Shown here piece by piece: positions 5,273 to 62,619 of a stretch of DNA of 64,000 nt. A program made the translations under genes and the position numbers. Under the pieces are notes generated by a model, which worked only from the letters and a program-made list of their open reading frames with translations, did no database searches and was not told the DNA's origin. Numbering within the stretch: the stretch's first letter is position 1; each line of letters begins with the position of its first letter. Origin of the DNA: Alphaproteobacteria bacterium (lineage in GTDB: Bacteria; Pseudomonadota; Alphaproteobacteria; UBA6615); the NCBI GenBank assembly GCA_021774575.1, contig JAJFIX010000023.1:4166-68165 (forward strand), read 5' to 3'.

Positions 5273-6739
5273 ATGGCACCTGACAGTCTGCCGGCCCTCA
5301 AAACCGGACTTTTCATTGGCGGCGCATGGCGGGACGCTTCGGATGGCGGCACCATCGAGGTGATCAACCCGGCAACCGAAACGGCGATTGCGTCGGTTGC
5401 CAGCGCGACGGCCCAAGACGCCATGGCAGCGGTTGATGCGGCGGATTTGGCCGCGCCGGCTTGGGCGGCGACGAGCCCACGTGAGCGCTCCGAAATCCTA
5501 CGTCGGGCTTTCGATCTTATGACCGCTCGTAAGGATGAAATTGCTCGGCTGATTGTTTTAGAAAACGGCAAGGCGCTGCCCGACGCCCAGGGCGAGGCGG
5601 CCTATGCCGCCGAGTTCTTCCGTTGGTATGCCGAAGAGGCGGTGCGCAATATCGGCGATCTCTATACCGCGCCTTCGGGGGCAAATCGCATCATGGTGAC
5701 CCAGCAACCGGTCGGTATTGCGCTGTTGATTACGCCGTGGAATTTTCCTGCGGCAATGGGCACCCGCAAGATCGGCCCGGCGCTTGCCGCCGGATGCACG
5801 GTGATCTTAAAACCGGCATCGGAGACACCGCTGACTGCGTTACTGATTGCCGATATTTTGGCCGAGGCCGGTGTCCCCGACGGGGTGGTTAATGTCATTT
5901 CCGCGCGTGGGTCTTCGGGGGTGCTGGAACACATCCTTGACGATGATCGGGTGCGCAAACTGTCTTTCACCGGCTCGACGGAAGTGGGGCGAACCTTGCT
6001 GCGCCAGGCAGCGAACACAATCGTCAACTGCTCGATGGAGTTGGGCGGGAACGCACCTTTTCTGGTGTTTGCCGATGCCGATATCGATGCGGCGGTCGAG
6101 GGTGCCATGGTGGCAAAAATGCGCAATGGGGGCGAGGCCTGCACGGCGGCCAATCGGTTTTATGTCGAAGCCTCGGTGGCAGATATATTTGCCGAGAAAT
6201 TTGCCACCGCCATGTCGGCGTTGAAAGTCGGCCCCGGCCTGGATGCGGATGTGCAACTCGGGCCACTGGTTAATGCCGAGGCGCGCGAGACCGTGCAGGC
6301 CTTTGTCACCGATGCGCTGGACCGTGGGGCGAAGCTGGTTACCGGTGGGCTGGTCACCGGCGGCGCGGCTCCCGAGGGTACCGGTTATTTTTACCCGCCG
6401 ACGGTGCTCTCTAATGTCGATCCGAAATCGGATCTTTGCCATGATGAAATTTTTGGGCCGGTGGCGCCGATCATTCCGTTTACCTCCGAGGACGAGGCCG
6501 TCGCACAGGCCAACGACACCGAATATGGACTGATTTCATATATTTATACCGCCGACATCGCCAAGGGATTGCGCGTTGCCGAGCGGATAGACTCAGGAAT
6601 GGTCGGGCTCAACCGTGGTGTGATCTCGGATCCCGCCGCGCCGTTCGGCGGCATGAAGCAGAGCGGCATTGGGCGGGAGGGCGCCCATGACGGCATGCTC
6701 GAATTTTTAGAGAAAAAATATATTGCGCTCAGCTGGTAG
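5273..6739 (+). CDS. gabD: NAD(P)-dependent succinate-semialdehyde dehydrogenase (aldehyde dehydrogenase family)
   Basis: Full-length ALDH: 'ITPWNFP', catalytic 'ELGGNAP', Cys in 'GEACTAANR'. Strong GabD-like similarity over the whole length. Confidence 0.85.
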   Translation: MAPDSLPALKTGLFIGGAWRDASDGGTIEVINPATETAIASVASATAQDAMAAVDAADLAAPAWAATSPRERSEILRRAFDLMTARKDEIARLIVLENGKALPDAQGEAAYAAEFFRWYAEEAVRNIGDLYTAPSGANRIMVTQQPVGIALLITPWNFPAAMGTRKIGPALAAGCTVILKPASETPLTALLIADILAEAGVPDGVVNVISARGSSGVLEHILDDDRVRKLSFTGSTEVGRTLLRQAANTIVNCSMELGGNAPFLVFADADIDAAVEGAMVAKMRNGGEACTAANRFYVEASVADIFAEKFATAMSALKVGPGLDADVQLGPLVNAEARETVQAFVTDALDRGAKLVTGGLVTGGAAPEGTGYFYPPTVLSNVDPKSDLCHDEIFGPVAPIIPFTSEDEAVAQANDTEYGLISYIYTADIAKGLRVAERIDSGMVGLNRGVISDPAAPFGGMKQSGIGREGAHDGMLEFLEKKYIALSW

Positions 6740-7760
6740 GCGGAACTTGGCCCGTTGACCCGCGTACGACAAGGTGCGGGGTCAACTCCATTGTGCCTGT
6801 TTTTGGGTTTTCGCCTGACAGGCGCCCAAGCATTGCTTGGGCGGCAGCCGCCCCCATTTTCCTGAGAGGGACGCTGACGGTTGTCAATGGCGGAGCCAAG
6901 CGGTCGACGATCGGCATGTCATTGAAGCCGACGATGGAAATGTCGGCCGGGCAGTTTAAATTCAGCGCCTCACTCGCCGCGTAACATCCCAAGGCTTGCA
7001 TATCGTTCCCGGCGACAATTGCCGTTGGCGGTGACGGCTGGTCCATCAGCGCAATCAGGGCCCGCTGACCCTCGGCCTCGCTGAAGGCATCGCAGGCGGC
7101 GATATTGGCAGGGGGACAGTCGAGACCATGGGCGGCCATGGCATGGCGAAACCCGGCAATTCTGCGATGGCCGGTTGACAGTCTTTCCGGACCGGCGATA
7201 TGGGCAATGCGCCGGTGGCCGAGGGCCGCCAGATGATCGACGGCGACCCGAATGCCCGCAGCATCGTCGGTCAGGATACAGTCAATATTTTCGACCTGGG
7301 TGGCGCGGTTGATCAGCACCAAGGCAAGCTTGTCATCGATTATGTCGCGAACCAATTTATCGTCGCGCCGGGCGGTGGCGAGGATCAGGCCATCGACCTG
7401 ACGGCCACGCATGGCGGCGATTAATGTTTCTTCGCGCGCCGGGTCATTATCGGTGTTGGCCAGGATTACCGTGTAATTTGACTGACCGAGCACTTCCTCG
7501 ATGCCGCGTATGAGCGGGGGGAACACCGGATTGGTTAAGTCGGGAATGATCACCCCGATGGTAAAAGATCGACTGGTTCGAAGGGAATAAGCAAAAAGAT
7601 TGGGTCGGTAGCCAAGTTCCTTTGCCGCTGCGGCGACGGCGGTGGCAATTTCAGGGGAAACCATGCCGCGTGTCGCTGGATTAAGAACCCGCGACACCGT
7701 TGATGAATGGACGCCGACCTTGGCGGCCACGTCTTTTAAGGTTATGCGCTCGTTGCTCAT
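6729..7760 (-). CDS. LacI-family transcriptional regulator
   Basis: N-terminal HTH 'ITLKDVAAKVGVHSSTVSRVLN' and a periplasmic-binding-like sugar-binding domain. Start trimmed to the ATG at 7760 (MSNERITLKD). Confidence 0.85.
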   Translation of the reverse strand: MSNERITLKDVAAKVGVHSSTVSRVLNPATRGMVSPEIATAVAAAAKELGYRPNLFAYSLRTSRSFTIGVIIPDLTNPVFPPLIRGIEEVLGQSNYTVILANTDNDPAREETLIAAMRGRQVDGLILATARRDDKLVRDIIDDKLALVLINRATQVENIDCILTDDAAGIRVAVDHLAALGHRRIAHIAGPERLSTGHRRIAGFRHAMAAHGLDCPPANIAACDAFSEAEGQRALIALMDQPSPPTAIVAGNDMQALGCYAASEALNLNCPADISIVGFNDMPIVDRLAPPLTTVSVPLRKMGAAAAQAMLGRLSGENPKTGTMELTPHLVVRGSTGQVPPTS

Positions 7761-7891
7761 TTTCCCTGGGCTCGACTGCATCTTCATGTTTTGCCTTCGT
7801 AAGGCTCTTGGCGTATAAAATTTCACCATGTTCTGCAAACGATTGCACGAACATTCGTTCATGAGAGTTTTAAGCATTGAAGGGTGATCTA

Positions 7892-8827
7892 ATGGCCGAG
7901 ATAGATTTGAAAAAATATTCCATTGGCTGGATTGGTGCCGGACGTATGGGATATCCGATGGCCGAACGGTTAATCAAGGCTGGCTGTGATGTTACAGTCT
8001 ATAACCGGACCAAGGCCAAAGCAGAGCCCCTGGCCGCCCTGGGAGCCAAGCTCGCCGATAGTCCGGCCGATCTTGCGGATCGTGATATTGTCTTTACCAT
8101 GGTCTCCGGCCCAGCCGATTTGCTGCAGGTGACTGGCGGGGAGCAAGGTGTCTTGTCGGTTTCGGGAACAGTGCCGAAAATGCTCATCGATTGTTCGTCG
8201 GTATCTGAGGAAGCTTCGGCCGAAGTGCGTGCGGCGGCGGCAAAACTTGGAGTGGCGATGCTGGCCGCGCCGGTCAGCGGCAATGGCAAAGTCGTCAAAG
8301 CCGGCAAACTTTCCATCGTTGCATCGGGGCCGCAAGAGAGTTTCGAAATCGCTGAGCCCTATCTTGATGTGATTGGGGTCGGGGTCTCTTATGTCGGCGA
8401 CGGCGAACTCGCGCGGATGGTCAAGATTTGCCACAATGTCCTGCTTGGGGTGGTTATCCAGAATTTGGCGGAAATAACCGTATTGGCGGAAAAAGGCGGC
8501 GTTCCGCGCCATGCCTTCCTCGATTTTATCAATAAGAGTGTGATGGGATCGATGTTTACCAAATATAAGACACCGGGCATGGTTAATCTCGATTACGCGC
8601 CGACCTTCACCCCGCCGCTTCTACGCAAGGATTTAGAGCTCGGGCTGGCAGCAGCCAAGCGGCTTGGAGTGCCGATGCCGGTAACCGTGACCACGTCAGA
8701 GATTGTCCAAGCGGCCATCGGCCTCGGGCATAGCGAAAAGGATTTCTCCATACTGCTCGATATGCAAGCCAAGGCGTCGGGGATGGAGCTGAAATCCGAA
8801 GAGATGGAGGTCGATACCGGCCTCTAA
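7892..8827 (+). CDS. NAD-binding 3-hydroxyisobutyrate / 2-hydroxy-3-oxopropionate dehydrogenase-family oxidoreductase
   Basis: N-terminal Rossmann motif 'IGWIGAGRMG' and a HIBADH-type C-domain. Confidence 0.75.
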   Translation: MAEIDLKKYSIGWIGAGRMGYPMAERLIKAGCDVTVYNRTKAKAEPLAALGAKLADSPADLADRDIVFTMVSGPADLLQVTGGEQGVLSVSGTVPKMLIDCSSVSEEASAEVRAAAAKLGVAMLAAPVSGNGKVVKAGKLSIVASGPQESFEIAEPYLDVIGVGVSYVGDGELARMVKICHNVLLGVVIQNLAEITVLAEKGGVPRHAFLDFINKSVMGSMFTKYKTPGMVNLDYAPTFTPPLLRKDLELGLAAAKRLGVPMPVTVTTSEIVQAAIGLGHSEKDFSILLDMQAKASGMELKSEEMEVDTGL

Positions 8828-8848
8828 TTCCAGTAAGTAGGGAAAAAC

Positions 8849-9484
8849 CTAGTTAACAGTGGGCGTAATTTGCGCGATTAAATCCTCGATAGAGCCGCCG
8901 TTTCGGCGCAAAATCGTTGCAAATTCCGTCTTCTGGGACTGCAGAAAACTCTTATTATTGATCGCTAAATCCAGCACCTTCGGCTGGCCTTCAATAACGT
9001 CGATAGTCCAGATAATAGGCGACGAAAAATGATCGGTCACCAGGACCGTGTTGACTTCAAATCTCCGGTTCTCGGATTCAGGACTATCGATTTCATTTGT
9101 GGCAAATATCTCGAAATGCCCGGTTGTTGGGAGGTTATCAACAACTGTGCTCGCCACAAATTCGGTCAAGGCGACAATGAAATGTTCTTTTTCCTCGTCG
9201 CTTGCAGTGATCCAGTGGCGGCCGAGGGTCAGCCGGGCAATCGCTTCCGTGGCGAAGGACGTGGTAAATGTGTCGCGCATCGCGGCGCGGCGCTCCAGGG
9301 GCTCAAGGGACGCATCCGTCAGCGCTGTAACGCCCTGCGCAGTCAAAACCTGGATAAATTGAGGGGCAACTAGGCTATTTGAGCTGCCAGCCCCGTCGGG
9401 CATTGCTGTAACCGGCTGACTGATGGTGAGAAGCATCAACGCCCAGGCGGCGCACGCAATAAAATGCCTTGCGCCTGCGGTCAT
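8849..9484 (-). CDS. MlaC/Ttg2D-family periplasmic lipid-binding protein (paralogue 1)
   Basis: Signal peptide. Aligns by eye to E. coli MlaC ('LTLGRHWITASDEEKEHFIVALTEFV' ~ '[26 protein letters not shown]'). Confidence 0.7.
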   Translation of the reverse strand: MTAGARHFIACAAWALMLLTISQPVTAMPDGAGSSNSLVAPQFIQVLTAQGVTALTDASLEPLERRAAMRDTFTTSFATEAIARLTLGRHWITASDEEKEHFIVALTEFVASTVVDNLPTTGHFEIFATNEIDSPESENRRFEVNTVLVTDHFSSPIIWTIDVIEGQPKVLDLAINNKSFLQSQKTEFATILRRNGGSIEDLIAQITPTVN

Positions 9485-9778
9485 TATTTTACCACTTAGA
9501 GGTGAGTTGCCGTCATTGGTTTGTTTGTTCATCAGGCGGGTCACTTCGAATTTGTTATTATCACTGAGGTGACGAACTGATATTGGGTATCTGAAATAAC
9601 AGAATACCCAGCAAGGGCTGATCGATGGCAGCCAGCGAGAGCCGCCTCGGCACCAGGGGACATTACCCCATAATTTAGTTGCTGAGAAAGCGCAAATTAG
9701 GGAAAATCGTTGCTATTAGGTCACAAATGGACCTGAAGTGCTGTGGATAGATGTGCTCTGGTTTTCGGGAGGCGGCGG

Positions 9779-10576
9779 TTATCCTGCGATTTCATCGATT
9801 AAGGCCGGGATTGATCCTCCCACTTGCCGTAAGATTTCGGCAAATTCCGCGCGTTGGGTCAGCAGGAAACTGCGCCCAGCAAAGGTTGCATCAAGTATGC
9901 GCAATTTGCCGTCGGTGGTAACCACGGACCACAAGACCTCGCCCTGGACGTCTGCGGATGAAAACAAGGACCTTACTTCAATGAGCGTGTCGGTCCGCTC
10001 CACCGCATCGACCTGACGTGCCGAAACAACCTCGATTCGGCCGTTCGGCGGAAATCCCTCAATGAGTTGCTTGGCCAGAAAACCGCCCAGGATTGCTCTA
10101 AATTGATCGCGTTCTCCCTCGTCGGCCTTGTTCCAGGCGCGGCCGAGGACGATCCGACTAATTTCCTGGGTAGCGAACTTTTGGTCGAAGAGATCACTGA
10201 AAAATTGACGCAATAGAGCCGGGCTGTTGGTTTGGTCGTTAAGCGCCGTAATGCTCGTCTGGGCGAGGTCGTTGATAAATTCTGGGGCTAGAGCAATAGA
10301 ATCCTGGCCATTCTGCGCCAATTGCAAAGGGGTGGCGGAGTTGATGGATCGCATATGTTCGGGCGACGATGGTGGGCCGGCCGCTAAGGGGGGCGTTACC
10401 AATGCTGCAGTTATTGCGATTAAAATACCTGCTCCGGCCGCAGTCCTCACAGAACTTGCGAGCAGGGATACGAAATATTTAGCCAACAGATTATTAGGAT
10501 ATTTCACTGAGCACCTATTCGTTAATGTTTTCGATTTTGCCGAAACGGCGAAAATTTGGAATTTAAAAATATTCAT
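9779..10576 (-). CDS. MlaC/Ttg2D-family periplasmic lipid-binding protein (paralogue 2)
   Basis: Same domain signature ('IVLGRAWNKADEGERDQFRAILGGFL'). An alternative GTG start at 10450 gives a cleaner signal peptide. Confidence 0.65.
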   Translation of the reverse strand: MNIFKFQIFAVSAKSKTLTNRCSVKYPNNLLAKYFVSLLASSVRTAAGAGILIAITAALVTPPLAAGPPSSPEHMRSINSATPLQLAQNGQDSIALAPEFINDLAQTSITALNDQTNSPALLRQFFSDLFDQKFATQEISRIVLGRAWNKADEGERDQFRAILGGFLAKQLIEGFPPNGRIEVVSARQVDAVERTDTLIEVRSLFSSADVQGEVLWSVVTTDGKLRILDATFAGRSFLLTQRAEFAEILRQVGGSIPALIDEIAG

Positions 10577-10606
10577 GCTGGCGCGAATGGCGCAGCTGTT
10601 TTGCGG

Positions 10607-11341
10607 CTAACGCCCCAATGTTTCAATGAGTCCATCCAAAGATCCTCCATTGCGTTGGAGAATGCGGTCAAAATCTCCCTTTTGCCCGAGAAGAAAGCTC
10701 GTCCGGGCAAAGGTAATATCAAGTATTTTCATTTCACCATCGACCGTTGCCACGATCCATGGAACTCTGGCGGAAAAATTTTGGCCGACAAAAACGGTCA
10801 CTACTTCGGTCTGCGGTAAGCCGAGCTCCGATTGTCCGGCCAGGGAGGCGCCGCGTACCTGAAAGCGACCATCGGGCACCCGGTCAATGATGACGTCGGC
10901 CAAGTGGATCGCCAGCACATCAAGAAAGGCGTCGCGCTGCTCTATCGATGCCGTTGACCAGATGCGACCGAGGACCGCCTGGCCGATTTGCTCCGACGCA
11001 AAAGCCGAGGAAAAAATTTGGCGAAATATCTCATGGGCCAATTGCCGACTTGTCTGGGCTTGGGTCAACGCGGCAAGACCCGCATCGATCACGGTGTCGA
11101 CGAAAATTGACGCGACATTGGTCGGGTCATCTGGCGCCTGAAAAATCCAGCGCGGCCCAATCGGTGTCGCGTTTTGGTTCGCAATTGGGCGAGCGGTCTC
11201 GGCAAAGCCAATGCTTGAAGTGAAAATTGCCACAGCTAGGCAAAATGCCAAACTCGCACCCGCTGTCGCAACAGGGCCGAAGGACACGAGAATTGCCGCG
11301 CCTGCGCGCCTAATTGAGTTATGTATAAATACTGTATTCAC
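10607..11341 (-). CDS. MlaC/Ttg2D-family periplasmic lipid-binding protein (paralogue 3)
   Basis: Same domain signature ('AVLGRIWSTASIEQRDAFLDVLAIHL') with an N-terminal signal/anchor. Confidence 0.65.
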   Translation of the reverse strand: MNTVFIHNSIRRAGAAILVSFGPVATAGASLAFCLAVAIFTSSIGFAETARPIANQNATPIGPRWIFQAPDDPTNVASIFVDTVIDAGLAALTQAQTSRQLAHEIFRQIFSSAFASEQIGQAVLGRIWSTASIEQRDAFLDVLAIHLADVIIDRVPDGRFQVRGASLAGQSELGLPQTEVVTVFVGQNFSARVPWIVATVDGEMKILDITFARTSFLLGQKGDFDRILQRNGGSLDGLIETLGR

Positions 11342-11671
11342 TGTTCTTTACGTGGCCAGGATATGAATTTTACTAACACTGTCGTGCCGGTTACTCGCTC
11401 ATAGTATCCGTATGGGCATAGTATAGTGTTATATATGTCTTTGTCGCGAAAATTTTTATAAGTTGAGTGAAAGATATATTAAATTGATATTCCGGAAAAA
11501 CACAGAATATGCCCACTTATCGGCCGCCCGCACATGACCCGCACATAAATTGACCAGATCAACCTGCACAATCGCGCAACCGCGTGGTCAGGTGCCAATC
11601 GCTAAGTTACGGCATCATTTGTGTGCGATATCTGGAATGCTGTTCAGAGACCGAGAGCTGTGCACTCAAAA

Positions 11672-11685
11672 TTGACCTGGATCAA
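11672..11685. promoter_or_regulatory. FNR/FixK-type box TTGAC-CTGG-ATCAA (one mismatch to TTGAT-N4-ATCAA)
   Basis: Palindrome read directly. Lies in the 500 bp AT-rich divergent intergenic region ~165 bp upstream of the beta-propeller gene. Confidence 0.45.
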
Positions 11686-11742
11686 GTTTTTCTTCCAAAA
11701 TTCCAATAAAGACCATGATTAGGCGGAATAAACGGTAAAATG

Positions 11743-11756
11743 TTGATGCATGTCAA
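11743..11756. promoter_or_regulatory. FNR/FixK-type box TTGAT-GCAT-GTCAA (one mismatch)
   Basis: Second palindrome ~93 bp upstream of ATG 11843. An FNR-type regulator is encoded in the same cluster. Confidence 0.45.
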
Positions 11757-11842
11757 TGTTCCACCCGTATTCGGTCACTACTTTTCAATTATCAATATTG
11801 CCATTGTTCTCTGTTCGAGAGCGCTCCAAAAAGGAGATCCCA

Positions 11843-13240
11843 ATGACCCCTAAACTATCAAAACTTTTTCGACTCGTTATTGCCCCGGCGGCTCTGTCTG
11901 TTGCGCTCATGGTTCAGCCGGTGGCCGGATCGTTTGCGCAATCCGACGGCCCCGGCGATGGTTGGACAACGCCGCTTGCCGAGCAACTCGGTGTTCGATT
12001 GGTCCAACGGTTCGATTCCTCGGGTGAAGATGCCTGGGATCCGCTAGCCCATCCCAACGTCTTTATTACAACCGAGGGGCCCGGATATGGCGGCCTGTTA
12101 AGTGGTGTCACCCAGCCGGGTATCGCTATTATTGACTCCGATACCCGTGAAGTTGTGGCTCATCAGAGCTATGACGTTCTCGCCCTTGGCTGGGAAAATG
12201 TGTTCGAACCCCACGGGCTCGGCGTTTCTCCTGACGGGCAATGGATTTATCTGCCAAGTGGCGAGGGATCCTTTTCCTCGGTCGGCAAAGGTCGGTTGCT
12301 GGTCATTAACGCGCGCACACTGAAACTGGACAAAATTTTAGGACTGCGCGGTCAACCCCATCACGCCAAATCCTTCACGATGCCGGACGGAACGGGCCTT
12401 GCCTATGTTTATGGCTGGGGCCAACCGATGTTTGCGATGGACCCCAGTGATGATAATCGCGTTGTCGGGGGATTGGATTTCAATGCAATGGGTATCGAGG
12501 GATATCTATATTTTGCCTCCCCCGAGGGCGACGAGATCATTGCCAGTGGGCGTTTTCGACGCGGTGTAGCGAGAAATGAGTTACATGGCAATGTGATGGT
12601 TCGCATCGATACGTCTGACTGGAGCTTGATTGACTATGTTCCAGTTGCTGACAGCACCCCTGTCTGGGTCTCTTTTAGCGCAGACGGCGAGAATGCGTAT
12701 TTCAGCGGTGGTCACTCTAGCCTCGTATTCAAATACGACCGGATCGGGGACGAGGTGACGTCGCACGCACGCGCTGGCGTTGAAGGTCCGTACGGTGTGC
12801 ATTTAGGTTGGGATGACACCTTCCTTTATGCGGTTGGCAAGGGCGAAGGATCCCACAATCGCGGTAAAGTATTGGGGCTTATCAATACCGATCTGATGGA
12901 TAGGTCAACCCGGCCAATGGATCAGTTTACGACAAACTGCTTGCGTGGCGATCACGGCACGCTTCATCCTGATCCGGATGCGAATGAGTTGTGGATTACC
13001 TGCAATTCGAGCTTTGAAATTGTGGTTTTTGACCTCGACCGTAACGAAGTCTCAGCCAGAATTCCGATGCCGAACGGTGGTAGCACTCACTCCGGCTCTT
13101 TCCTTCAATATGCAGGCTGGAATGGCGAAGTCGTCGCCGACCAGAACGGGCTTCAAGGCAGCGCACTTACCCTGAAGCGCCAACTGCTCGGGTTGGAGGG
13201 TGCCGAAACGGTGCCCGCCGATGAGCTAGTGGGCGACTAA
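11843..13240 (+). CDS. secreted beta-propeller protein of unknown function (SBP56/MtoX-like or NosZ-propeller-like; unresolved)
   Basis: AAGGAG RBS 8 bp before ATG 11843 and a Sec-type signal peptide. Blade-like repeats ('AYFSGGHSSLVFKYD', 'ELWITCNSSFEIVVFD'), an HH pair, no Cys-rich site. Confidence 0.5.
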   Translation: MTPKLSKLFRLVIAPAALSVALMVQPVAGSFAQSDGPGDGWTTPLAEQLGVRLVQRFDSSGEDAWDPLAHPNVFITTEGPGYGGLLSGVTQPGIAIIDSDTREVVAHQSYDVLALGWENVFEPHGLGVSPDGQWIYLPSGEGSFSSVGKGRLLVINARTLKLDKILGLRGQPHHAKSFTMPDGTGLAYVYGWGQPMFAMDPSDDNRVVGGLDFNAMGIEGYLYFASPEGDEIIASGRFRRGVARNELHGNVMVRIDTSDWSLIDYVPVADSTPVWVSFSADGENAYFSGGHSSLVFKYDRIGDEVTSHARAGVEGPYGVHLGWDDTFLYAVGKGEGSHNRGKVLGLINTDLMDRSTRPMDQFTTNCLRGDHGTLHPDPDANELWITCNSSFEIVVFDLDRNEVSARIPMPNGGSTHSGSFLQYAGWNGEVVADQNGLQGSALTLKRQLLGLEGAETVPADELVGD

Positions 13241-13344
13241 CGGATCGGCGACGGTAGGAGATACCGTCACCAACACGTCAGAAGGGGGATAGCCCCGCTA
13301 TCCCCCGCCTCTTCAAACCACTGCCCAATTCAGAATTTAGCAAA

Positions 13345-14616
13345 ATGTTTGCGCGACGAATGACCAAGGAGATGGCTGTGCTGAACAAACTGAAATCGAA
13401 TGCCGGATTAGGTGTCATTGCCGGAGCGGCCATTTGCACCACTGCAATTTTCCTTGTTGTTTCAAGCAGCGCCCAATCCCAAGCGCCTGCGATCAGCGAC
13501 GCGTCGCCGCAAGTTGAAAACGGCCGGGACATATTTATGACAGCGGGGGGCGTTGGTTGTGCAGCCTGTCACGGAATTTTTGGTGAAGGCGATGTCGGCA
13601 TCGGCCCTTATGCGCGCGGTGTGAATAGGGCGTCGATCGACGCGGCGCTAGAATCCATTGCCGAAATGTCCTTCCTTCGAAGTTCGGTACGCGGCCAATC
13701 CATCGACGATATTGCTGCCTATACGGAGTGGCTCGGCAATCATCAACTGGTAAAGACCCTCGCCAAGCGCGGCCGTTTTATTCCCGACAGCGTATCCGTC
13801 CGTCCAAACACATTGATCCAGCTGGTTATATCTAATGCCAGCCGGTTTCCCCGCACCTTTGCCAGTGACGATATGGGTATCGGTGAGATTTCCGTGGATG
13901 GACGTGAGGTCGCAGAAATTATCTGGACGTCGCCTAGTGAGGAGGGAACTTTCACCCTACGTTGCTTGGATTGCCGGATTACCGATCAGCAACTTTCTAT
14001 CCAAATTTCGAATGACGCTGCGCCCTTCACCCCCGTTTCTGGGCCACCGGTTGAGGTGGCGAATACGCCTGCACCAGCCGTTCAGACAGCGGCGGATTTG
14101 GACTTGATCGACCGCGGTCGAGATATTTTTCTCAATGCCGGTGAGGTGGGGTGCACGGCCTGTCATGGCTCTTACGCCGAAGGCGATGTTGGAATTGGTC
14201 CTTATAATAGAGGCCTCGATGAAGACGATATTCGTCTGGCGTTGGCTAATGTCGATGCGATGCGTTTCCTGCAGCAACAACTAGACGATGAACAAATTCA
14301 TCAAGTCGCTGCCTATTACGGATGGCTGGGTGATCACCAGCTTTTCAAAACGCGCATGATCCGTGGGCAATTCTTTCCGAATAGAATTCGGGTGGCGCCG
14401 GGGGCGGCTATTCAGTTGGCGATTACCAATCGCGCTCGTTCCCCTGGTGCATTTTTTAGCGCCGACATGGGGATTGAACCCTTCGTTGTCCAAGGTTTGG
14501 AGACGGTCGATTTTTTCTGGACCGCGCCAAGGGTTGAAGCCGAATTCACCCTGCGCTGCGCCGATTGCGCGACATCAGATTGGCTGACCATCGAGACGAC
14601 GCAGGCTGCACGATAG
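13345..14616 (+). CDS. periplasmic di-heme c-type cytochrome with internally duplicated [cyt c + cupredoxin-like] modules
   Basis: Two CxxCH motifs ('CAACHG', 'CTACHG'), each followed by 'GEGDVGIGPY'. Two ~90 aa beta-sandwich-like modules sharing 'DMGI' and 'LRCxDC' but lacking His ligands. Start uncertain (13345, 13372 or 13378). Confidence 0.6.
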   Translation: MFARRMTKEMAVLNKLKSNAGLGVIAGAAICTTAIFLVVSSSAQSQAPAISDASPQVENGRDIFMTAGGVGCAACHGIFGEGDVGIGPYARGVNRASIDAALESIAEMSFLRSSVRGQSIDDIAAYTEWLGNHQLVKTLAKRGRFIPDSVSVRPNTLIQLVISNASRFPRTFASDDMGIGEISVDGREVAEIIWTSPSEEGTFTLRCLDCRITDQQLSIQISNDAAPFTPVSGPPVEVANTPAPAVQTAADLDLIDRGRDIFLNAGEVGCTACHGSYAEGDVGIGPYNRGLDEDDIRLALANVDAMRFLQQQLDDEQIHQVAAYYGWLGDHQLFKTRMIRGQFFPNRIRVAPGAAIQLAITNRARSPGAFFSADMGIEPFVVQGLETVDFFWTAPRVEAEFTLRCADCATSDWLTIETTQAAR

Positions 14617-14635
14617 GGCAGGAAAGGGAAAAGCT

Positions 14636-16063
14636 ATGACAAATTTGAATGTCGCCAACCGCCCGTCCTTCAAGCCCGTCCGAAGAACTTGGGCCGCTGT
14701 GGGCCGATCCTGGGGAGGGTCGCATCCCCGGCTGGTCGCAATTTTTTCCTTACTTGCCGCTCTCGTCGTCTCGTCTGCTTGGCTAGCATTTCCCTATATT
14801 CTTGAAGGCCGTGGGCTCATTGCCGATGTCGGCGACACGGTGCAGACCGAGCGCCGCGACCGCGCGACTACGGTCGGGCAGCTGCTCACCCGTTATGCCG
14901 ATGGGCTGGGCGGGGCGGAAATCGACATGCTCTACGCGACACCGCGTTTTTTCGAAATCGCGGGGCAAGCCTCAAGCTATGATCAATACCGGCCCGATCA
15001 ATACATTGTGTTTATGATTAATGAGACGACCCATATCGAGGACCTGCCGCAACAGTTGCCCGAGGCGACCTTGATCGTCGATGGAAAGACGTATCAACCG
15101 GTCGATATTGAAGGGCCCATTGATGTCGTTCACCATCGATCCTCAACGGTTCGTTTTGCCGCGATTGACGCCAATGGCCAGCCGATTATTCCTGCCGATA
15201 CAAGCGAAATTGAACTCAGCCTTGTCGGCGATTGGGGCGACGCCGGGATGCCACGTACCGCATCATGGGATTTGCCGATCGATTATGCCGAGACCTATGA
15301 CGCAGGAATTTGGACACCTGTGATGGTTTTTGCCCTTGCGGCGGGCTTGTTGTCGGCAGTTTTGACCCCGTGTTTGCTGCAATTGCTGGCGGTTTATTTT
15401 GTCACCCTTGTTGGAGTTTCGGCTGAGAGTGGTGGTGGTAGTGGCAGTGCTTCTGCCTCCGGCCCTGGGGGCCGAAAAATGTTATATGCAGCGCTGGCGT
15501 TTGTGGCCGGTTTTACAGTTCTCTACACGGTTGCGGGTGCCGCGATCGGCTATGCCGGCAAGGAAATGCAGATATTGTCTGCCGAATGGAGCCGTCACGT
15601 TGGCATTGCGTCGGGACTTTTGATCATTGCAATGGCAATTTGGTTCGGTATCAGGTCGCGGGCACCGATGGTCTGTAAAATCCCGTTGCCCGGCGCGGTT
15701 GCTCGGTTTGACAAACGCGGCGTCATCGGCTCGGCGCTCGTCGCCGCCGGTTTTTCGCTGGGCTGCATGACATGCTTTAGCGGTGCGATTGTCGCGACCC
15801 TCCTCGTCTATGTCGGTGCGTTGGGGAGTGCCTCAATCGGAGCACTGGTTCTCTTCCTGTTCTCGATCGGTGTTGGAATTCCGTTCTTGGCCGGAGCGCT
15901 GTTCCTGTCCCGAGCCACTCGGGCAATGGCATGGGTGTCGAAATTTTCGCCCCAGATCGGTTTCGTTTCGATGGTGCTGATGGCTGGGTTCGGCGTGCTC
16001 CTGATTACCGATAATTTTCACGAAGTGAGCAATCTCATTTACCCATGGCTCGGTTTGGGGTGA
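14636..16063 (+). CDS. DsbD/CcdA-family transmembrane thiol-disulfide electron transporter with a Cys-free periplasmic N-terminal domain
   Basis: TM1 'AAGLLSAVLTPCLLQLL' matches the CcdA 'LSPCxLP' motif. A later 'GCMTCFSG' carries the second Cys pair. The ~230 aa N-domain has no Cys. Confidence 0.6.
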   Translation: MTNLNVANRPSFKPVRRTWAAVGRSWGGSHPRLVAIFSLLAALVVSSAWLAFPYILEGRGLIADVGDTVQTERRDRATTVGQLLTRYADGLGGAEIDMLYATPRFFEIAGQASSYDQYRPDQYIVFMINETTHIEDLPQQLPEATLIVDGKTYQPVDIEGPIDVVHHRSSTVRFAAIDANGQPIIPADTSEIELSLVGDWGDAGMPRTASWDLPIDYAETYDAGIWTPVMVFALAAGLLSAVLTPCLLQLLAVYFVTLVGVSAESGGGSGSASASGPGGRKMLYAALAFVAGFTVLYTVAGAAIGYAGKEMQILSAEWSRHVGIASGLLIIAMAIWFGIRSRAPMVCKIPLPGAVARFDKRGVIGSALVAAGFSLGCMTCFSGAIVATLLVYVGALGSASIGALVLFLFSIGVGIPFLAGALFLSRATRAMAWVSKFSPQIGFVSMVLMAGFGVLLITDNFHEVSNLIYPWLGLG

Positions 16064-16102
16064 ACCGGAATGCTGGTTGATTGGTTCCAATTTGGAGGTA
16101 GG

Positions 16103-16447
16103 AAAATGAAAAAACTTTTGATCCATGCGGCTTTGGCATTCTTTGTCCTGACGCCGGTTGTCCTGGCGTCAGGGGCAGCAAATGCGGCCGAGCGCGATAT
16201 CACGTTGACTGTTCTCATGACTTGCCCGACGTCCGAACCACCGTTGGTCCGAAAAACGCTGCTTGACGTCAATGGCGTGAGCGAGGTCGCGGTATCCTAT
16301 TCAGACAAAAATGCATATGTGATTTTCGATGATGCGGTGACGAATGAAATGGAACTGATTGCCGCGATTAATGAGATTGGGCTGCGGACGTCACGTGATG
16401 AGGATGGGGGGGATATGGAAGCCATGGATGATATGAGCGAAATGTAA
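16103..16447 (+). CDS. small periplasmic HMA-like (ferredoxin-fold) protein with degenerate 'MTCPTS' site and Met-rich C-terminal tail
   Basis: Signal peptide. 'ITLTVLMTCPTSEPPL..VSEVAVSY..AYVIFDD' mirrors the HMA 'GMTCxxC' layout but with a single Cys. C-terminus 'MEAMDDMSEM' is an MxxMxxMxxM motif. Confidence 0.5.
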   Translation, partial: KMKKLLIHAALAFFVLTPVVLASGAANAAERDITLTVLMTCPTSEPPLVRKTLLDVNGVSEVAVSYSDKNAYVIFDDAVTNEMELIAAINEIGLRTSRDEDGGDMEAMDDMSEM

Positions 16448-16490
16448 AAATTGATCGCTCGGGCTTGAGCAAGAGACACGAGGGCAGAAA

Positions 16491-17660
16491 ATGACAAGTT
16501 TCAAATCAATGATGGTCTTAAGCGCCGGATTTCTCCTTTTGGGTACGGCGGTTGCATTCGCTGTGCGAGAACCAAATGTGTCGCTCGCCGTTAGTGATAT
16601 TGAAAAATATGTGTTCGTTCCCAGTTTGGGGTCGGCCGACATTACGGTGATTGACAGTCGGAATAATTCTGTTGTCGGGACGATTGATCTTGACGAAATC
16701 CCGGACCGGTTGGTCGTGTCTTCCGCCGTCGGCCAGCTTATTGTCAGCAATCTAGAAAGTCGCACCGTTACATTGATCGATATAGAGACCGGCGATGAGA
16801 CTGCCGAGATCGCCCTAGATATAACGCCGCAATCCCTGGTCATGAGCCCCGAGGGGTATCTGGTCGCTGTGAGCGATGTTGATGCCGGCGTCGTCGCCGT
16901 GATTTCGTTGCACCGTGGCGTTGAAGTTTCGAGGATAGACAATCTTTCGGCGCCCTCTGGGTTAACTTTCAGCGATGATGGGTCGTTACTTTATGTTCCA
17001 GATGGTGCGTCAAATTCGATCAAACTTATCGATATCGTCCAAGGTAGGGCGTTTGGGGAGTTACCACTATCTGCTGGCAACCCTGATGGAGTAGGCGACC
17101 CGGAAATGCTCAGCGCCGTCACCAGAAGTGCCAATGGTCGCTTTGGCTTTTGCGCCATCGGTCATGCCGAGGAGCTTGCCATATTTGATTTTGGAACCGA
17201 GCAACGGGTCAAGACGCTCAAATTGGGTAACCAGCCTTCGCGGCCTTTCGGCACCGCGGATGGGCGATATATTATGGTGGCAAACAACGGTGATCGCACC
17301 GTGTCGATTATTGATACGCAGACCTTTGATATTGCCGCAACGCTGCCCGGGGCCGCCGATGTTACAGCAATTAACACCGGTTGGTTTGAGACCGTGGCCT
17401 TCGTCATCAGCGAAAGTGAGGACAAAGCGATCATCCTCGACCTCATGGATTTACGTAAATCTGGTGAGATTGAATTACCGAGTTCTCCCGGTCCAGGTGT
17501 CGTGACTCCCGACGCAGCGACACTTTATGTTGCGCTTAGCGATACCGATAGCGTCGCGGTGATCGATACACGGTCACGCCGGGTGACGGCAATTATCGAT
17601 AATGTAGGAACCCAGCCGCGAGGCGCGACAATGGCGCGAACGAATAATTATTGCCATTAG
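16491..17660 (+). CDS. YVTN-family beta-propeller repeat protein (NirF / cytochrome-d1-domain-like, no heme c motif), periplasmic
   Basis: Signal peptide. Roughly 40-residue repeats ('LYVPDGASNSIKLIDI', 'YIMVANNGDRTVSIIDT', 'LYVALSDTDSVAVIDT'). Confidence 0.6.
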   Translation: MTSFKSMMVLSAGFLLLGTAVAFAVREPNVSLAVSDIEKYVFVPSLGSADITVIDSRNNSVVGTIDLDEIPDRLVVSSAVGQLIVSNLESRTVTLIDIETGDETAEIALDITPQSLVMSPEGYLVAVSDVDAGVVAVISLHRGVEVSRIDNLSAPSGLTFSDDGSLLYVPDGASNSIKLIDIVQGRAFGELPLSAGNPDGVGDPEMLSAVTRSANGRFGFCAIGHAEELAIFDFGTEQRVKTLKLGNQPSRPFGTADGRYIMVANNGDRTVSIIDTQTFDIAATLPGAADVTAINTGWFETVAFVISESEDKAIILDLMDLRKSGEIELPSSPGPGVVTPDAATLYVALSDTDSVAVIDTRSRRVTAIIDNVGTQPRGATMARTNNYCH

Positions 17661-17704
17661 GCCCGACACCCTAGGTCAGCAACAAACTCGGGAGGTTGTG
17701 CAAA

Positions 17705-18361
17705 ATGAAAGAAAATTTTCGCCTTGGAATATATGGCAGCCTGGGACTGCTGCTTTGCGCCGCTACCGTAGCCGCCCTGTTGCTGATTAATAATCGCTTG
17801 GCGCCTGAAATCTCGGATCCGCCGCTTGAAATTGATGCGGCAATTATCGACCCAGGGGGACCATTTGCACTGGTCGATCATCAAGGAAAATCGGTAACCG
17901 ACCGTGATTTTCTCGGTCGATATCTACTGGTTAATTTTGGTTATACATTCTGTCCCGACATTTGCCCCACGACGCTCGGCCAAATTACCGTCGCGATGGA
18001 CCTGCTCGGTGAGAATGCGAACAAGGTTCAACCCGTGTTTATCACCGTCGATCCGGAGCGGGACTCAATTGAAGTTTTGGCCCGCTATATGAATTTTTTT
18101 CACCCTCAATTGATCGGCTTGACCGGCTCATCCGACCAGATCGCCAATGTCGCCCGGGTCTATATGGTTCACTACGCCCAGGCCGAGAGGGTCGAAGAGG
18201 CAAGCTATTATTCGGTCGATCACAGTAGCTTCATATACCTCATGGGGCCGGAAGGAGAATTTAGGGACGTCATTGCTTATGGAACTCTACCGCAGGAAAT
18301 GGCGTCGCTCATTGAGCGCCATATTTCAAACGATAGCTCGGCGTCCGGGGACGGCCAGTAA
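17705..18361 (+). CDS. SCO1/SenC-family copper chaperone (thioredoxin-like)
   Basis: GGGAGG RBS then ATG 17705. N-terminal TM anchor, 'FGYTFCPDICP' CxxxC motif and a downstream conserved His ('VDHSSF'). Confidence 0.85.
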   Translation: MKENFRLGIYGSLGLLLCAATVAALLLINNRLAPEISDPPLEIDAAIIDPGGPFALVDHQGKSVTDRDFLGRYLLVNFGYTFCPDICPTTLGQITVAMDLLGENANKVQPVFITVDPERDSIEVLARYMNFFHPQLIGLTGSSDQIANVARVYMVHYAQAERVEEASYYSVDHSSFIYLMGPEGEFRDVIAYGTLPQEMASLIERHISNDSSASGDGQ

Positions 18362-18414
18362 GGGGAAAGCCAGATAGCCGGATAACCGGGGTAACGAAGA
18401 TTGGAGGTAAATCC

Positions 18415-19194
18415 ATGCCAATGAAAAAGCAAAAAGATCCACTTTGCGGCATGATACTTCATGCAGAGCGTGGCAAATGCGCTTCCTGCGAAGTTCGGGC
18501 ACTCTCAATCTGCGCGCCTCTGGATCGGTCCGCTCTGGAAGTGCTGGCTGACTTGTCGGAGGTGGTAAATTTTAGGAAGGGTGACAGTATCTGCGCCGAA
18601 GGCGATCCGGTGGATTATTTTTTTACCGTGCAGTCCGGGGCACTGAAGACGTGTCGGTTACAGTCGGGGCGCCGTGACCTTGTGACCGGCTTTTTGTTTG
18701 GCGGAGATTTCCTCGGCCTGGCATTCTTTGCCGGGCAAATTGAGGCGGATACTCATTACCCATATGCCGTCAGGGCCTTAAGCAAGGGCCGCCTGTGTCG
18801 GCTGCCAAGACAGGCATTTTCCAAATTCATTGCCGATTATCCGCTTATTGAGAAACAAATTTTGGCAAAAATTTCGTTGAAACTGGAGCAGGCGGAAAAT
18901 CATATCCTGTTGCTTGGCAGAAAGAATGCGCGAGAAAAAATCTCTTCTTTCATTTTGCAACTTGATGACGCGCAGAGATTTGCTCGTCAAAATCTGGAGA
19001 GTGATTTTCAAGGTGTCGATACCGTTGATTTTCCTTTGGCGCGCCATGATATTGCCGATTACCTGGGAATGACTCCCGAAACAGTCAGCCGTGCCTTAAC
19101 TCAGCTGAAGGAAGACGGCTTGATCCGGCAACTCAGCTCACGCTGTGTTGCGCTCGTCCAGCGACAAATGTTGGAAGAGATAGCCGCAGGGTAG
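18415..19194 (+). CDS. Crp/Fnr-family transcriptional regulator, FnrN-like (N-terminal Cys cluster)
   Basis: N-terminal 'C..CASCEVRALSIC' (C-x2-C-x7-C plus an upstream Cys). cNMP-like beta-roll and a C-terminal HTH 'ETVSRAL' with the E--SR FNR-specificity residues. Confidence 0.8.
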   Translation: MPMKKQKDPLCGMILHAERGKCASCEVRALSICAPLDRSALEVLADLSEVVNFRKGDSICAEGDPVDYFFTVQSGALKTCRLQSGRRDLVTGFLFGGDFLGLAFFAGQIEADTHYPYAVRALSKGRLCRLPRQAFSKFIADYPLIEKQILAKISLKLEQAENHILLLGRKNAREKISSFILQLDDAQRFARQNLESDFQGVDTVDFPLARHDIADYLGMTPETVSRALTQLKEDGLIRQLSSRCVALVQRQMLEEIAAG

Positions 19195-19275: not shown

Positions 19276-19641
19276 TTATTGAGTGGCTAGAAATTCAACA
19301 ATGTCGGCGGCGTCTTGGGCATCTCCGACGCCGGGAAAGGCCATGCTGGTGTCGGGTACGAGTACTTGAGCCTCGGCAATGTACAGCAATAGCGTCTCTT
19401 CATCCCAGGTGAGACCAGATCCTTTCATCGCGTCGGAATATTCGAAATCGGCGAGGTCGGCCGCGGGTCGTCCGATAACACCGGCCAGGCTCGGCCCGAT
19501 GATATTTTCGCCAGCCGTCAAAGAATGGCACGCAGCGCAGACCTGAAACAGGTCTTCACCCCGCGCGGCGTCTTGGGCCAGTATAGGCGTTCCGCTCGCC
19601 AGCACTATTGCGGTCGCCATTATTGATATTGTTGCTTTCAT
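19276..19641 (-). CDS. class I c-type cytochrome (c2/c550-like), periplasmic
   Basis: Signal peptide, single 'CAACHS' heme motif and a Met sixth-ligand region. 121 aa. Confidence 0.85.
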   Translation of the reverse strand: MKATISIMATAIVLASGTPILAQDAARGEDLFQVCAACHSLTAGENIIGPSLAGVIGRPAADLADFEYSDAMKGSGLTWDEETLLLYIAEAQVLVPDTSMAFPGVGDAQDAADIVEFLATQ

Positions 19642-20073
19642 AGCCGATTCCTTCCGTCATTCAGTCATTCAGTTGAGTAAGAACGAATAATCGGCATAAA
19701 AGCCGCCGACTTGGCATGCGACCGATTGTATGCAAGGTAGCTAATTGGTGCTGATTTTCCATGATCTATGTCAGCATTCCAGTTGATTAGGAAGCTAAGG
19801 CAGCTCCTTTAGTGGCCGTCTCGATGGATCTATCGCGGGAAAACGATGGTCCGAATCGACTAGATGGCGTGGTTTTGGAAAAACGACTCTAACCGCCCCT
19901 CCCTATCCACAGATTTAGGGGCTCGATAAGTAAATTATCCATAGGGACGGTGACCCGGTATTTGGATCGTATCTATTTTTACGTACCGCGTGGAGATGCC
20001 GCTGTTCAAATTCGGGAAATTGCCCCTGTGGACAAATACGAATTTGTGTACAGGTTTTGGTAGTCATGTCGGG

Positions 20074-20082
20074 TTATCCACA
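20074..20082 (+). promoter_or_regulatory. perfect DnaA-box 9-mer TTATCCACA (a second 8/9 copy, CTATCCACA, at 19903-19911)
   Basis: Read directly. Both copies share orientation and lie in the ~890 bp intergenic region upstream of the giant surface-protein gene. Confidence 0.3.
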
Positions 20083-20531
20083 GAGGTGGCGCCTATTTGC
20101 AACACCCAAATGAACTATTCCATATAATTCGGTCGAGCTATAGATTTGTTGGGCCCGTGAGTTGGTGCAACTACAAGACCGACTGAACTGTCCTAAGACC
20201 GTTGTGCAGTCTGAACTTTATGAAGGTTTTTCAATTCAATTTACGTCGCTGGAACGGCTCAAAAGTGGCCCAATTTGGGGGTCGGTTATCGAGCCGATTG
20301 CCTGTGGAAAAAACATGGTTTCATCCACAGGGCTGTGTACTGTTCTGAGTTGTGGCGAGACCGTGGCTTGGACATCGGGGGAATCAATGAATATCGAAAC
20401 ACTGCCTTCAGCGGCAGTGTGCTGCTCTTGGCAAGGTATAACCTGTCGGGGTTGCGCAAATGTGGGGGCGTGCTTTGGACGATAACCGTTTTCGATCGCG
20501 GTTATTTGGCCGGCCGTTTTCTTGCCGATTA

Positions 20532-45088: not shown

Positions 45089-45550
45089 ATGAAACTGAAA
45101 CTCACGATTGCCGCAATGCTGATGGGCCCTTTAGGGGCTGGCGCTGCTTACGCCGCCGATGATGATTGCTCCGTCCCGCTCGCCGATTGGCAGCCGACTG
45201 ACGCGGTGCAGCAGTTGGCCGATACACAAGGTTGGGACGTACAACAGATCCAGGTTGATTCCGGATGTTACGAAATTAGCGGATTGGACAGGCTAGGCCG
45301 AGCGATCGAGGTAACGTTGAACCCGGCGTCACTCGCGATCGTGGAGATTGGTCATGACGGAGATGACGGCCGTGGAAATGATGACCGTGACGACGATGGT
45401 CGTGACGACGATGGTCGTGACGATGATTTCGATCGCGATGATGATGACGACAACGACGACAATGACAATGATAATGACGACGACAATGACAATGACGACG
45501 ACAATGACAATGACAATGACAATGACGACGACGACGACGACGACGATTAA
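45089..45550 (+). CDS. secreted PepSY-domain protein with long poly-Asp/Asn low-complexity tail
   Basis: Signal peptide. PepSY-like core ('GWDVQQIQVDSGCYEISGLDRLGRAIEVTLNPASLAIVEI'). About 65 aa of D/N/R/G tail. Confidence 0.7.
   Translation: MKLKLTIAAMLMGPLGAGAAYAADDDCSVPLADWQPTDAVQQLADTQGWDVQQIQVDSGCYEISGLDRLGRAIEVTLNPASLAIVEIGHDGDDGRGNDDRDDDGRDDDGRDDDFDRDDDDDNDDNDNDNDDDNDNDDDNDNDNDNDDDDDDDD
45357..45547 (+). repeat. coding trinucleotide microsatellite (GAC/GAT/AAT)n encoding the D/N-rich tail
   Basis: 'gacgacaatgacaatgataatgacgacgacaatgacaatgac...gacgacgacgacgacgat' read directly. Imperfect (GAC GAC AAT)/(GAC AAT) units. Confidence 0.8.
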
Positions 45551-45803
45551 TGCCGTCGCGGTGGTCTGCGATTCGGCACAAAATAGGCATTATCGCATCA
45601 CCGTGTAGCGGTCTTTTCATCGAATGGTTTTGGTGCATTTCCGTTGCCTCGCTCACTCCGGAGCGAGGCAACACCGGACCTTAACGCCACCGGATTTGCA
45701 ACCTGAACAGACGAGCAAAGCAATTTTCAAATTCCTTTCGGCGTCGCACCGATCTTTAACGTCGAAATGCATCGACGAAACCGTTTTGACTGGAGACCAA
45801 GCC

Positions 45804-46274
45804 ATGAAATCGCCTTTGGCAGCGTTGACCATAGCCACCACACTTGCCTTGCCAAGCCTAGCCATGGCTGGCCCAGTGACCCTCAGCACTGAAATGAATA
45901 GTTACGGTGGTGATGGCGCTTATCTCGTACTTTATGTGACCGATGCGGAGGGTGCTTACATCGGCACGCTCTGGATGTCGGGTGGCAAGTCGAAATATTA
46001 CAGCCATCTCAGTGATTGGACACGTGCATCAGGTGGTAACTTACAGGAAATCAATGGCATTACCGGCGCGAGCGTTGGCGCTGGCGCGACATTGAACGTA
46101 ACGCTGGAACTTGCCGACGCCCTGTTCGAGGCGGGGTACGAGCTGCACATAGATAGCTCGGTTGAGGACATGCGAGACGTTCCGTCAGAGATCGTCGTGC
46201 CCTTAACCGTCGAAGGCGCCGGCCAAGCTGTTACCGGCAGCCGATACATCAAATCCTTCACCTATGACCGGTAG
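45804..46274 (+). CDS. periplasmic DUF2271-like protein with candidate ApbE flavinylation motif
   Basis: ATG 45804 with a signal peptide 'MKSPLAALTIATTLALPSLAMA'. 'EINGITGASVGAGATL' resembles the D-G-[LI]-[ST]-G-A-[TS] FMN-attachment motif of NqrC/RnfG. The six-frame ORF start at 45624 is likely spurious. Confidence 0.55.
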   Translation: MKSPLAALTIATTLALPSLAMAGPVTLSTEMNSYGGDGAYLVLYVTDAEGAYIGTLWMSGGKSKYYSHLSDWTRASGGNLQEINGITGASVGAGATLNVTLELADALFEAGYELHIDSSVEDMRDVPSEIVVPLTVEGAGQAVTGSRYIKSFTYDR

Positions 46275-46299
46275 GAATCTCTAACGAAGGACGGGTATC

Positions 46300-48510: not shown

Positions 48511-48511
48511 C

Positions 48512-62274: not shown

Positions 62275-62619
62275 TCATTCGCCTACTTTTTTGAGTGCAA
62301 CAGGGTCGCCGTGGGGGGTCGATAAATATGCTTGCGTCCAGGCGTGTTTGAGATCGGCAAGGTCACTTGCATTCGCCAAGTCACGGGCAATAAGAAATTC
62401 CTCGAACGTGACCAGCCAAATATCATAATAGTCAGACCCGTCTTTGGGTGACCCGTTATTGTTGGCGAGCTTTAGCGCGATGGCGAATTGATCGGTCCAG
62501 TCTGACCATGAAAAATGGCCGCTGGCAGAGAGGGTATGTGTGACGGCGAAAAGCTCGGCGTGCCATGGTTCAGCGAATGCAGGTTCGGTTTTCTCGGTTC
62601 CGGCGTCATGCGGGGGCAA
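62275..62619 (-). CDS. nitrile hydratase accessory/activator protein (beta-subunit homologue, P14K-like)
   Basis: About 114 aa with similarity to the NHase beta C-region. Immediately 3' of the beta gene, with a short overlap. Confidence 0.55.
   Translation of the reverse strand: MPPHDAGTEKTEPAFAEPWHAELFAVTHTLSASGHFSWSDWTDQFAIALKLANNNGSPKDGSDYYDIWLVTFEEFLIARDLANASDLADLKHAWTQAYLSTPHGDPVALKKVGE

Follow-up and report, generated by a model that had tools for sequence, protein, structure and literature searches.

The 64,000-nucleotide stretch of DNA analysed here, referred to below as the window, belongs to an alphaproteobacterium of the UBA6615 lineage (assembly GCA_021774575.1, contig JAJFIX010000023.1) and carries on its minus strand three consecutive genes of the MlaC/Ttg2D family, which we call paralogues A, B and C and which are transcribed in the direction C to B to A. 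The first gene of this cassette, C (10607-11341), encodes 244 amino acids (aa) with an MlaC domain at about residues 73-244; the second, B (9779-10576), encodes 265 aa in its longest open reading frame (ORF), with the domain at about residues 105-263; and the third, A (8849-9544), encodes 231 aa, with the domain at about residues 59-226. Later starts are given for two of them in the public gene calls of a contig that is 100% identical to positions 6545-14137 of the window (L001), where A begins at 9532 and is 227 aa long and B begins at 10507 and is 242 aa long. B is also identical to a database protein (P0002). The spacer between C and B is short (30-99 bp in the window) and that between B and A is long (9545-9778, minus strand, 234-246 bp).

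Each of the three proteins scores well over the gathering cutoff of 26 bits for the Pfam family MlaC (PF05494), with 75.8 bits for A, 68.7 for B and 57.8 for C, and as the E-values range from 5e-21 to 2e-15 these matches are not due to chance. A first-pass annotation of the window, made from the letters alone, had named three divergent MlaC-like paralogues at this place and had named a different fold on profile search as one outcome that would overturn the idea; the profile returned MlaC. Structures were modelled with AlphaFold2 for A and C, the family evidence for B being the Pfam match alone, and the domain reached pLDDT values of 80-90 in A and 90-97 in C. Both models are predicted to consist of an N-terminal helical subdomain and a four-stranded NTF2-like sheet, which is the MlaC fold. 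The best Protein Data Bank (PDB) matches found by Foldseek (the top 12 for A and the top 11 for C) were all MlaC/Ttg2D structures at probability 1.0, with target-normalised TM-scores of 0.57-0.73 and 12-19% identity in the structural alignment, and comprised 5UWA, 7VR6, 6HSY, 4FCZ/5UWB, 2QGU, 8DTE and the MlaC of an MlaCD complex. A search of PDB sequences with a profile of the three paralogues gave no match at E<=0.01, so that the known structures are linked to the triplet through fold comparison only. Going by the models, the fold assignment is secure, though the proteins are remote from every characterised MlaC, and membership of the triplet in the MlaC/Ttg2D family and fold is near certain. 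Among themselves the paralogues share 31-35% pairwise identity and are thus old duplicates, which agrees with the earlier view that they did not arise by recent duplication.

The N-terminus of each paralogue holds a hydrophobic stretch of 15 residues, with a Kyte-Doolittle mean above 2.1, and behind it small-residue, AxA-like motifs of the cleavage type, and it lacks a lipobox; the same combination is common to all orthologues found in other lineages. Judged from sequence, these N-termini fit Sec export as soluble periplasmic proteins, in line with the signal peptide that had been ascribed to each paralogue, and an uncleaved N-terminal anchor may be the alternative to a cleaved signal. Lipoprotein anchoring was rejected on the absence of the lipobox, and Tat export of C, prompted by a stretch reading SIRRAGAA, was rejected because the RR pair is not conserved in the C orthologues. 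Like MlaC/Ttg2D proteins at large, the members of the triplet have a domain of about 170 aa from the same Pfam family and of the same fold, together with an N-terminus that looks export-type, but they differ in having a linker or extension of 20-50 aa between the putative signal peptide and the domain. In the C group this extension carries a conserved motif directly before the MlaC domain, GPRW[ILV]F[QR]xP[DE]DPT[NH]VAP, which AlphaFold2 places with low confidence. The B group is marked by RxVxGS in place of RRNGGS.

Relatives of the cassette are few. When 1.84 billion representative proteins were searched exhaustively by HMMER with a profile of the three paralogues, 3638 family matches emerged, headed by a tier of about 14 clusters (P0003-P0016, E-values 1e-62 to 1e-41) below which the scores grade into generic MlaC. 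Word-indexed protein searches with A, with the three-paralogue alignment or with a 17-sequence subfamily alignment recovered almost exclusively self-matches, and locus scans of GTDB genomes and JGI metagenomes gave generic MlaC loci only (21-33% identity) and no close orthologues. By BLAST the cluster members sort with individual paralogues: P0004 (59% identity) and P0006, P0007, P0008 and P0011 (46-48%) are A-like, P0005 (L162_B, 45%) and P0009 (37%) are B-like, and P0003 (61%), P0010 (51%) and P0015 (44%) are C-like. The C orthologues P0010, P0151, P0003 and that of locus L165 are 51-61% identical.

Complete cassettes in the order C-B-A were found in two further lineages. One is a single species represented by two metagenome-assembled genomes (MAGs) with 98.7% DNA identity (loci L162 and L169; GCA_027297525.1 and GCA_027296085.1), whose genes are C-like (51%), B-like (43-45%) and A-like (46%). 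The other is represented by L165/L166, with C-like (59%), B-like (44%) and A-like (48%) genes. Partial cassettes occur at three other loci, where we found a C orthologue at the contig end (L164), a C orthologue with the beginning of a further exported protein behind it (L163) and at least two tandem copies in syntenic position (L171). It is thus near certain that the triplet is a cassette conserved in C to B to A order, each gene having its own orthologue in no fewer than two other lineages. Identity within the orthologue groups is 47-56%, compared with 37-38% between groups, and an alignment of 13 sequences holds 20 invariant columns plus 6-8 group-specific invariant residues in each group. 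The triplication is therefore old: it took place before several uncultured alphaproteobacterial lineages diverged, and all three copies have since been maintained as distinct genes. Fixed gene order and one-to-one orthology across lineages, a conservation that the first-pass annotation had not noted, give the strongest argument at hand that the copies are probably not redundant and do different jobs.

That the three genes might instead be redundant or decaying duplicates without distinct roles is suggested by the speed at which they change. Between the window and L165 the cassette proteins are 44-59% identical and the flanking proteins 71-88%, so the cassette diverges faster than its surroundings, and its GC content at third codon positions (GC3) lies below that of the flank in both genomes compared. 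Decay would account for these two traits, but all three ORFs are intact in the window and in the other lineages, and order and orthology have been held across about 50% protein divergence together with the invariant and group-specific residues just mentioned, so that we regard redundant or decaying duplicates as extremely unlikely.

How unusual such a cassette is can be gauged from 160 generic MlaC loci (L002-L161) taken from GTDB genomes and JGI metagenomes, mostly of Rhodospirillales-type Alphaproteobacteria and 21-33% identical to the triplet. When the subfamily profile was applied to the ORFs of these loci, 155 held a single MlaC gene and five a doublet, and none held an intact triplet, which makes the tandem triplet specific to this small clade. 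The doublets (L054, L071, L139, L144 and L161) amount to about 3% of the alphaproteobacterial loci fetched, so small local expansions of MlaC are not unique to the triplet clade. A literature search found no description of a conserved tandem MlaC triplet, although overlap with the data set of Tripathi et al. (2025) is possible.

In the canonical Mla pathway, MlaC works with the inner-membrane complex MlaFEDB, made up of the permease MlaE, the ATPase MlaF, the MCE protein MlaD and the STAS protein MlaB, and with the outer-membrane lipoprotein MlaA. A Pfam scan of essentially every ORF of at least 150 aa in the 64 kb window detected no MlaE (PF02405), MlaD/MCE (PF02470), MlaA (PF04333), MlaB-type STAS or MlaF-type partner, and the ABC systems of the window are limited to an importer of the NMT1/BPD_transp_1 type and the urea Urt system. 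The relatives present the same picture: no MlaE, MlaF, MlaD or MlaB lies within 10 kb of the cassette in L165, and MlaA is missing from the flanks in L165, L169 and L171 as it is from the window. The claim that Mla partner genes are absent from the neighbourhood thus holds within the window. What the first-pass annotation built upon it, a specialised function signalled by the orphan state, does not follow. In a census of 42 alphaproteobacterial genomes, in which Pfam was run on 106 genes lying within two positions of MlaC, MlaA was a neighbour in 7 of 42 and squalene/phytoene synthase (SQS_PSY) in 4 of 42, the latter being the hopanoid context of HpnM-type genes, and the rest were unrelated housekeeping genes; MlaE and MlaD fell outside the 25 commonest neighbour families and therefore occur at most three times each. 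Separation of MlaC from mlaFEDB is the norm in Alphaproteobacteria, and so the orphan status of the triplet is no sign of special function. Since most alphaproteobacterial MlaC genes likewise stand apart, the partners missing from the window leave action in trans possible. The generic MlaC genes of Rhodospirillales, Stellaceae, Thalassospira and others resemble the triplet in family, at 25-33% identity, and in not being next to mlaFED. They differ in being mostly single genes, beside MlaA in the 7 of 42 cases counted above, whereas the triplet subclade occupies a separate score tier. With respect to MlaC/Ttg2D in general, the difference is that the triplet has no adjoining mlaFEDB or mlaA and consists of three distinct orthologues, not a single gene.

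Taking these observations together, we consider it probable, with some reserve, that the paralogues A, B and C work in the periplasm as sub-functionalised lipid carriers of the MlaC fold, together with membrane partners whose genes lie at other places in the genome. In this scenario the C to B to A cassette would encode three anciently diverged, Sec-exported, soluble periplasmic MlaC/Ttg2D-fold proteins, and the maintenance of each copy as a separate orthologue with invariant residues of its own would point to sub-functionalisation. The three shuttles might carry different amphipathic or hydrophobic envelope lipids, or might dock on different membrane partners, and the genes for those partners, such as an MCE/ABC complex of the MlaFED type and a lipoprotein of the MlaA type, would be located elsewhere, as is usual in alphaproteobacteria. 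Lipid binding, the differing specificity and the distant location of the partners are the portions that we infer. Three points weigh against this scenario. A phospholipid-carrier function would be an extrapolation by analogy with MlaC proteins of very low sequence similarity, as follows from the PDB sequence search without a match and the low structural-alignment identity reported above. In a neighbour-joining tree with 100 bootstrap replicates the C group was recovered 96 times, but the A and B groups only at the moderate values of 42 and 51, and monophyly of the subclade was recovered in 29 of 100 with deeper branches left unresolved. Finally, the fast divergence and low GC3 of the cassette could reflect weak constraint.

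A different use of the same conserved arrangement would be an obligate hetero-oligomer, for instance of 1:1:1 composition, in which the three paralogues act as one carrier or scaffold. The presence of one member per orthologue group, in fixed order, in every lineage with a long enough contig is what such a complex would be expected to leave, and oligomerisation has a precedent among MlaC homologues, as a monomer-dimer equilibrium is reported for Campylobacter MlaC (bioRxiv 10.64898/2026.08.28.747810). An obligate partnership sits poorly, however, with the solo members of the subclade (P0011, P0013 and P0153), which lie on other contigs of the same samples as triplets, and with the long B-A spacer, which suggests possible separate expression of A. 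We therefore hold the hetero-oligomer to be unlikely. Quite unlikely, in our estimate, is a related possibility in which the C-B-A cassette would be a self-contained, three-component periplasmic lipid-handling module, either a hetero-complex or a hand-over relay, that engages partners other than MlaFEDB/MlaA and uses the N-terminal extension of C as a docking peptide.

As to the solo members themselves, P0013 is found on L167, from the sequencing run that is also the source of the window (SRR15505515), between a TonB-dependent receptor and a formate-tetrahydrofolate ligase. P0011 and P0153 come from the assembly that also supplied L165 (ERZ26661914), the former adjoining sulfotransferase, sulfatase and glycan genes and the latter near cupin and amidohydrolase genes. 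The two solo-member contigs of that assembly, L168 and L170, have a coverage of about 7x, equal to that of L165, and this equal coverage suggests that L165, L168 and L170 are candidates for a single genome with five subclade members. For L167, the tetranucleotide correlation bearing on the same-genome question was r = 0.86.

The B-A spacer is long in three lineages, measuring about 246 bp in the window, 280 bp in L162 and about 300 bp in L165, and from its sequence it may contain an internal promoter or a 5' leader for A. Its RNA folding z-score is -3.1; no Rfam match was obtained, and no robustly conserved sequence block was seen across the relatives. A DnaA-box-like motif common to the B-A spacers (T[TA]TCCACA) was set aside as evidence, a single match being within chance expectation. 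Ahead of the whole cassette, a sigma-70-like promoter candidate (GCGACA-16-TATACT; 11420-11447, minus strand) precedes the start codon of C by about 80 bp. It is a weak match to the consensus, and the number of such matches in the scan was not above shuffled expectation; a TATAGT/TATACT element upstream of C is also present in L162 and L163.

Both sides of the cassette were compared among the relatives, and it is here that a connection to the neighbouring redox genes can be judged. Downstream of A and convergent with it lies a 3-hydroxyisobutyrate-dehydrogenase-like gene (7877-8827, plus strand; Pfam NAD_binding_2 and NAD_binding_11) with counterparts of 83-86% identity in the same position downstream of A in L165, L171 and L169. 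It is a conserved syntenic anchor in four lineages and serves here as context, with no functional partnership inferred. Farther left in the window are an aldehyde dehydrogenase, a LacI regulator, two BPD_transp_1 permeases, two M24 peptidases and an FrsA-like hydrolase. Between the window and L165 this flank remains highly similar (dehydrogenase 83%, M24 peptidases 88% and 71%, FrsA-like hydrolase 78%, permeases 75-77%), and the LacI gene is also common to L171 and the window at 63% identity. Upstream of C the situation differs. The window has a divergent copper/cytochrome c operon, found in this position only in the window among the compared loci, whereas a Lon-like protease and a Usp-like protein occupy the site in L165 and L164, and PAS_5 and MFS genes in L169. 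The C-proximal end of the cassette is thus the precise point at which synteny is lost, which makes the redox operon a lineage-specific neighbour. The Lon/Usp pair, directly upstream of the cassette, consists of a LonC/LonB-like AAA protease of 815 aa translationally coupled to a 270-aa Usp-like protein (L165 4809-8065, L164 1-1292), with identities of 70% and 53% between the two loci; no homologues of these genes were found in the window.

Proximity to this operon had led to the suggestion that the triplet serves it, for instance as a carrier of quinone or lipid to a redox complex in the membrane. The two units are adjacent and divergent, both have a lower GC3 than the left flank, and they share an intergenic region of 400-500 bp with two perfect FNR/FixK-type boxes (TTGA-N6-TCAA) at 11672 and 11743, which are also two of the four window matches to the stricter TTGAT-N4-ATCAA with one mismatch allowed. 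The boxes, however, are about 170 and 100 bp away from where the operon probably begins (11843), compared with 330-400 bp for the start of C, and no FNR-type box was found upstream of C in L162-L165. Being nearer the operon and absent upstream of C in the relatives, they are assigned to the operon, one of whose own genes codes for an FnrL-like regulator, and FNR control of the triplet was rejected on the same comparison. Given that the orthologous cassettes in L165, L164 and L169 adjoin Lon and Usp or PAS_5 and MFS genes while the dehydrogenase/M24/FrsA side is retained at 71-88% identity, the suggested link to the redox operon found no support. The position of the triplet beside it is lineage-specific, offers no evidence of shared function and looks accidental, and a role for the three proteins in serving this operon is in our judgement very unlikely.

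The operon has features of its own. It is FnrL-linked and of unusual composition (11843-19194 on the plus strand, with 19276-19641 on the minus strand), and its gene content suggests a copper-dependent redox system of the periplasm for low-oxygen conditions. It encodes a protein with two cytochrome c and cupredoxin modules, a DsbD_TM-type membrane protein with a large N-terminal domain, a MerP/UxxU-like single-Cys HMA protein, a YVTN beta-propeller, SCO1/SenC and the FnrL/FixK regulator. A 465-aa protein of the operon has no Pfam match and shows weak YVTN beta-propeller similarity to PDB 1l0q.

The cargo of the triplet had also been sought by analogy with HpnM, a subset of the MlaC family that is proposed to shuttle hopanoids together with the MlaA-like HpnS (PMC12324291). 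A, B and C would then be carriers of hopanoids or other polycyclic isoprenoid lipids, and HpnM (TIGR03481) is indeed the sole NCBIfam match of all three proteins. According to the summary in PMC12324291, extra mlaC copies in other Pseudomonadota are dispersed and lie near hopanoid genes (Tripathi, Ayekpam & Kanaujia 2025, Arch Microbiol 207:107, as cited there). The scores of the three proteins are only 41.0, 30.5 and 28.0 bits against a cutoff of 160.1, however, and neither the window nor the flanks of L165, L169 and L171 contain shc, hpnN, squalene synthase or an MlaA/HpnS-like gene. The analogy thus lost its footing, and we find an HpnM-type role very improbable. HpnM does resemble the triplet as an MlaC-family paralogue encoded away from mlaFEDB, and offers a precedent for non-phospholipid cargo on the MlaC fold (PMC12324291); it differs in being a single gene, not a tandem of three, and in its hopanoid and HpnS/MlaA-like neighbours, which the triplet lacks along with a score anywhere near the cutoff. 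The genomes of Tripathi et al., as far as that summary describes them, are alike in having more than one MlaC-family gene, with the extras away from the mla operon. Their extra copies are dispersed beside hopanoid genes, whereas those of the window are tandem, ordered and without lipid-biosynthesis neighbours.

MlaC is usually treated as the single shuttle of a single pathway. While the family itself is known, what is new here is the triplet as a conserved, ordered cassette with one-to-one orthologues in a thinly sampled alphaproteobacterial clade. If A, B and C are indeed sub-functionalised carriers, the cassette is a natural experiment in how the MlaC fold diversifies in cargo or partner specificity, and the three proteins form a compact set for comparative lipid-binding and structural work. 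The stakes are moderate and the current picture of periplasmic lipid transport is not challenged. As alphaproteobacterial MlaC genes without mla neighbours are the rule, orphan status alone should not be taken as a sign of new biology.

To the right of the redox operon, the window continues with a giant gene, a urea transporter and urease genes, a two-component system, a PepSY/ApbE cluster, polysaccharide export genes and nitrile hydratase. The giant gene (20460-30791, plus strand) encodes a 3443-aa protein with 11 DUF11 repeats, four DUF7507 repeats and CARDB/SdrD_B-like domains, and its long C-terminal region resembles an outer-membrane beta-barrel; from this domain content it is probably a surface adhesin or an autotransporter-like protein. 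The intergenic region of about 800 bp between the cytochrome c gene and this giant gene holds a cluster of DnaA-box-like matches (TTATCCACA, at most one mismatch), with 6 of the 18 in the window at 19903-20329 and a perfect one at 20074. The window total of 18 compares with a shuffled mean of 9.9 and was reached in 2 of 100 shuffles. As no GC-skew switch was seen at 19903-20329, the cluster is probably not oriC, and it could be a DnaA-titration or regulatory site.

Downstream of the two-component system, a plus-strand cluster (45089-49516) encodes a PepSY_2 protein, a DUF2271 protein, a 736-aa fusion of PepSY_TM, flavodoxin and FNR-type reductase domains, and an ApbE flavin transferase; in its predicted content it resembles a periplasm-facing, flavin-dependent reductase module. 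The genes for the alpha and beta subunits of nitrile hydratase (62606-63983, minus strand) lie at the right edge of the window.

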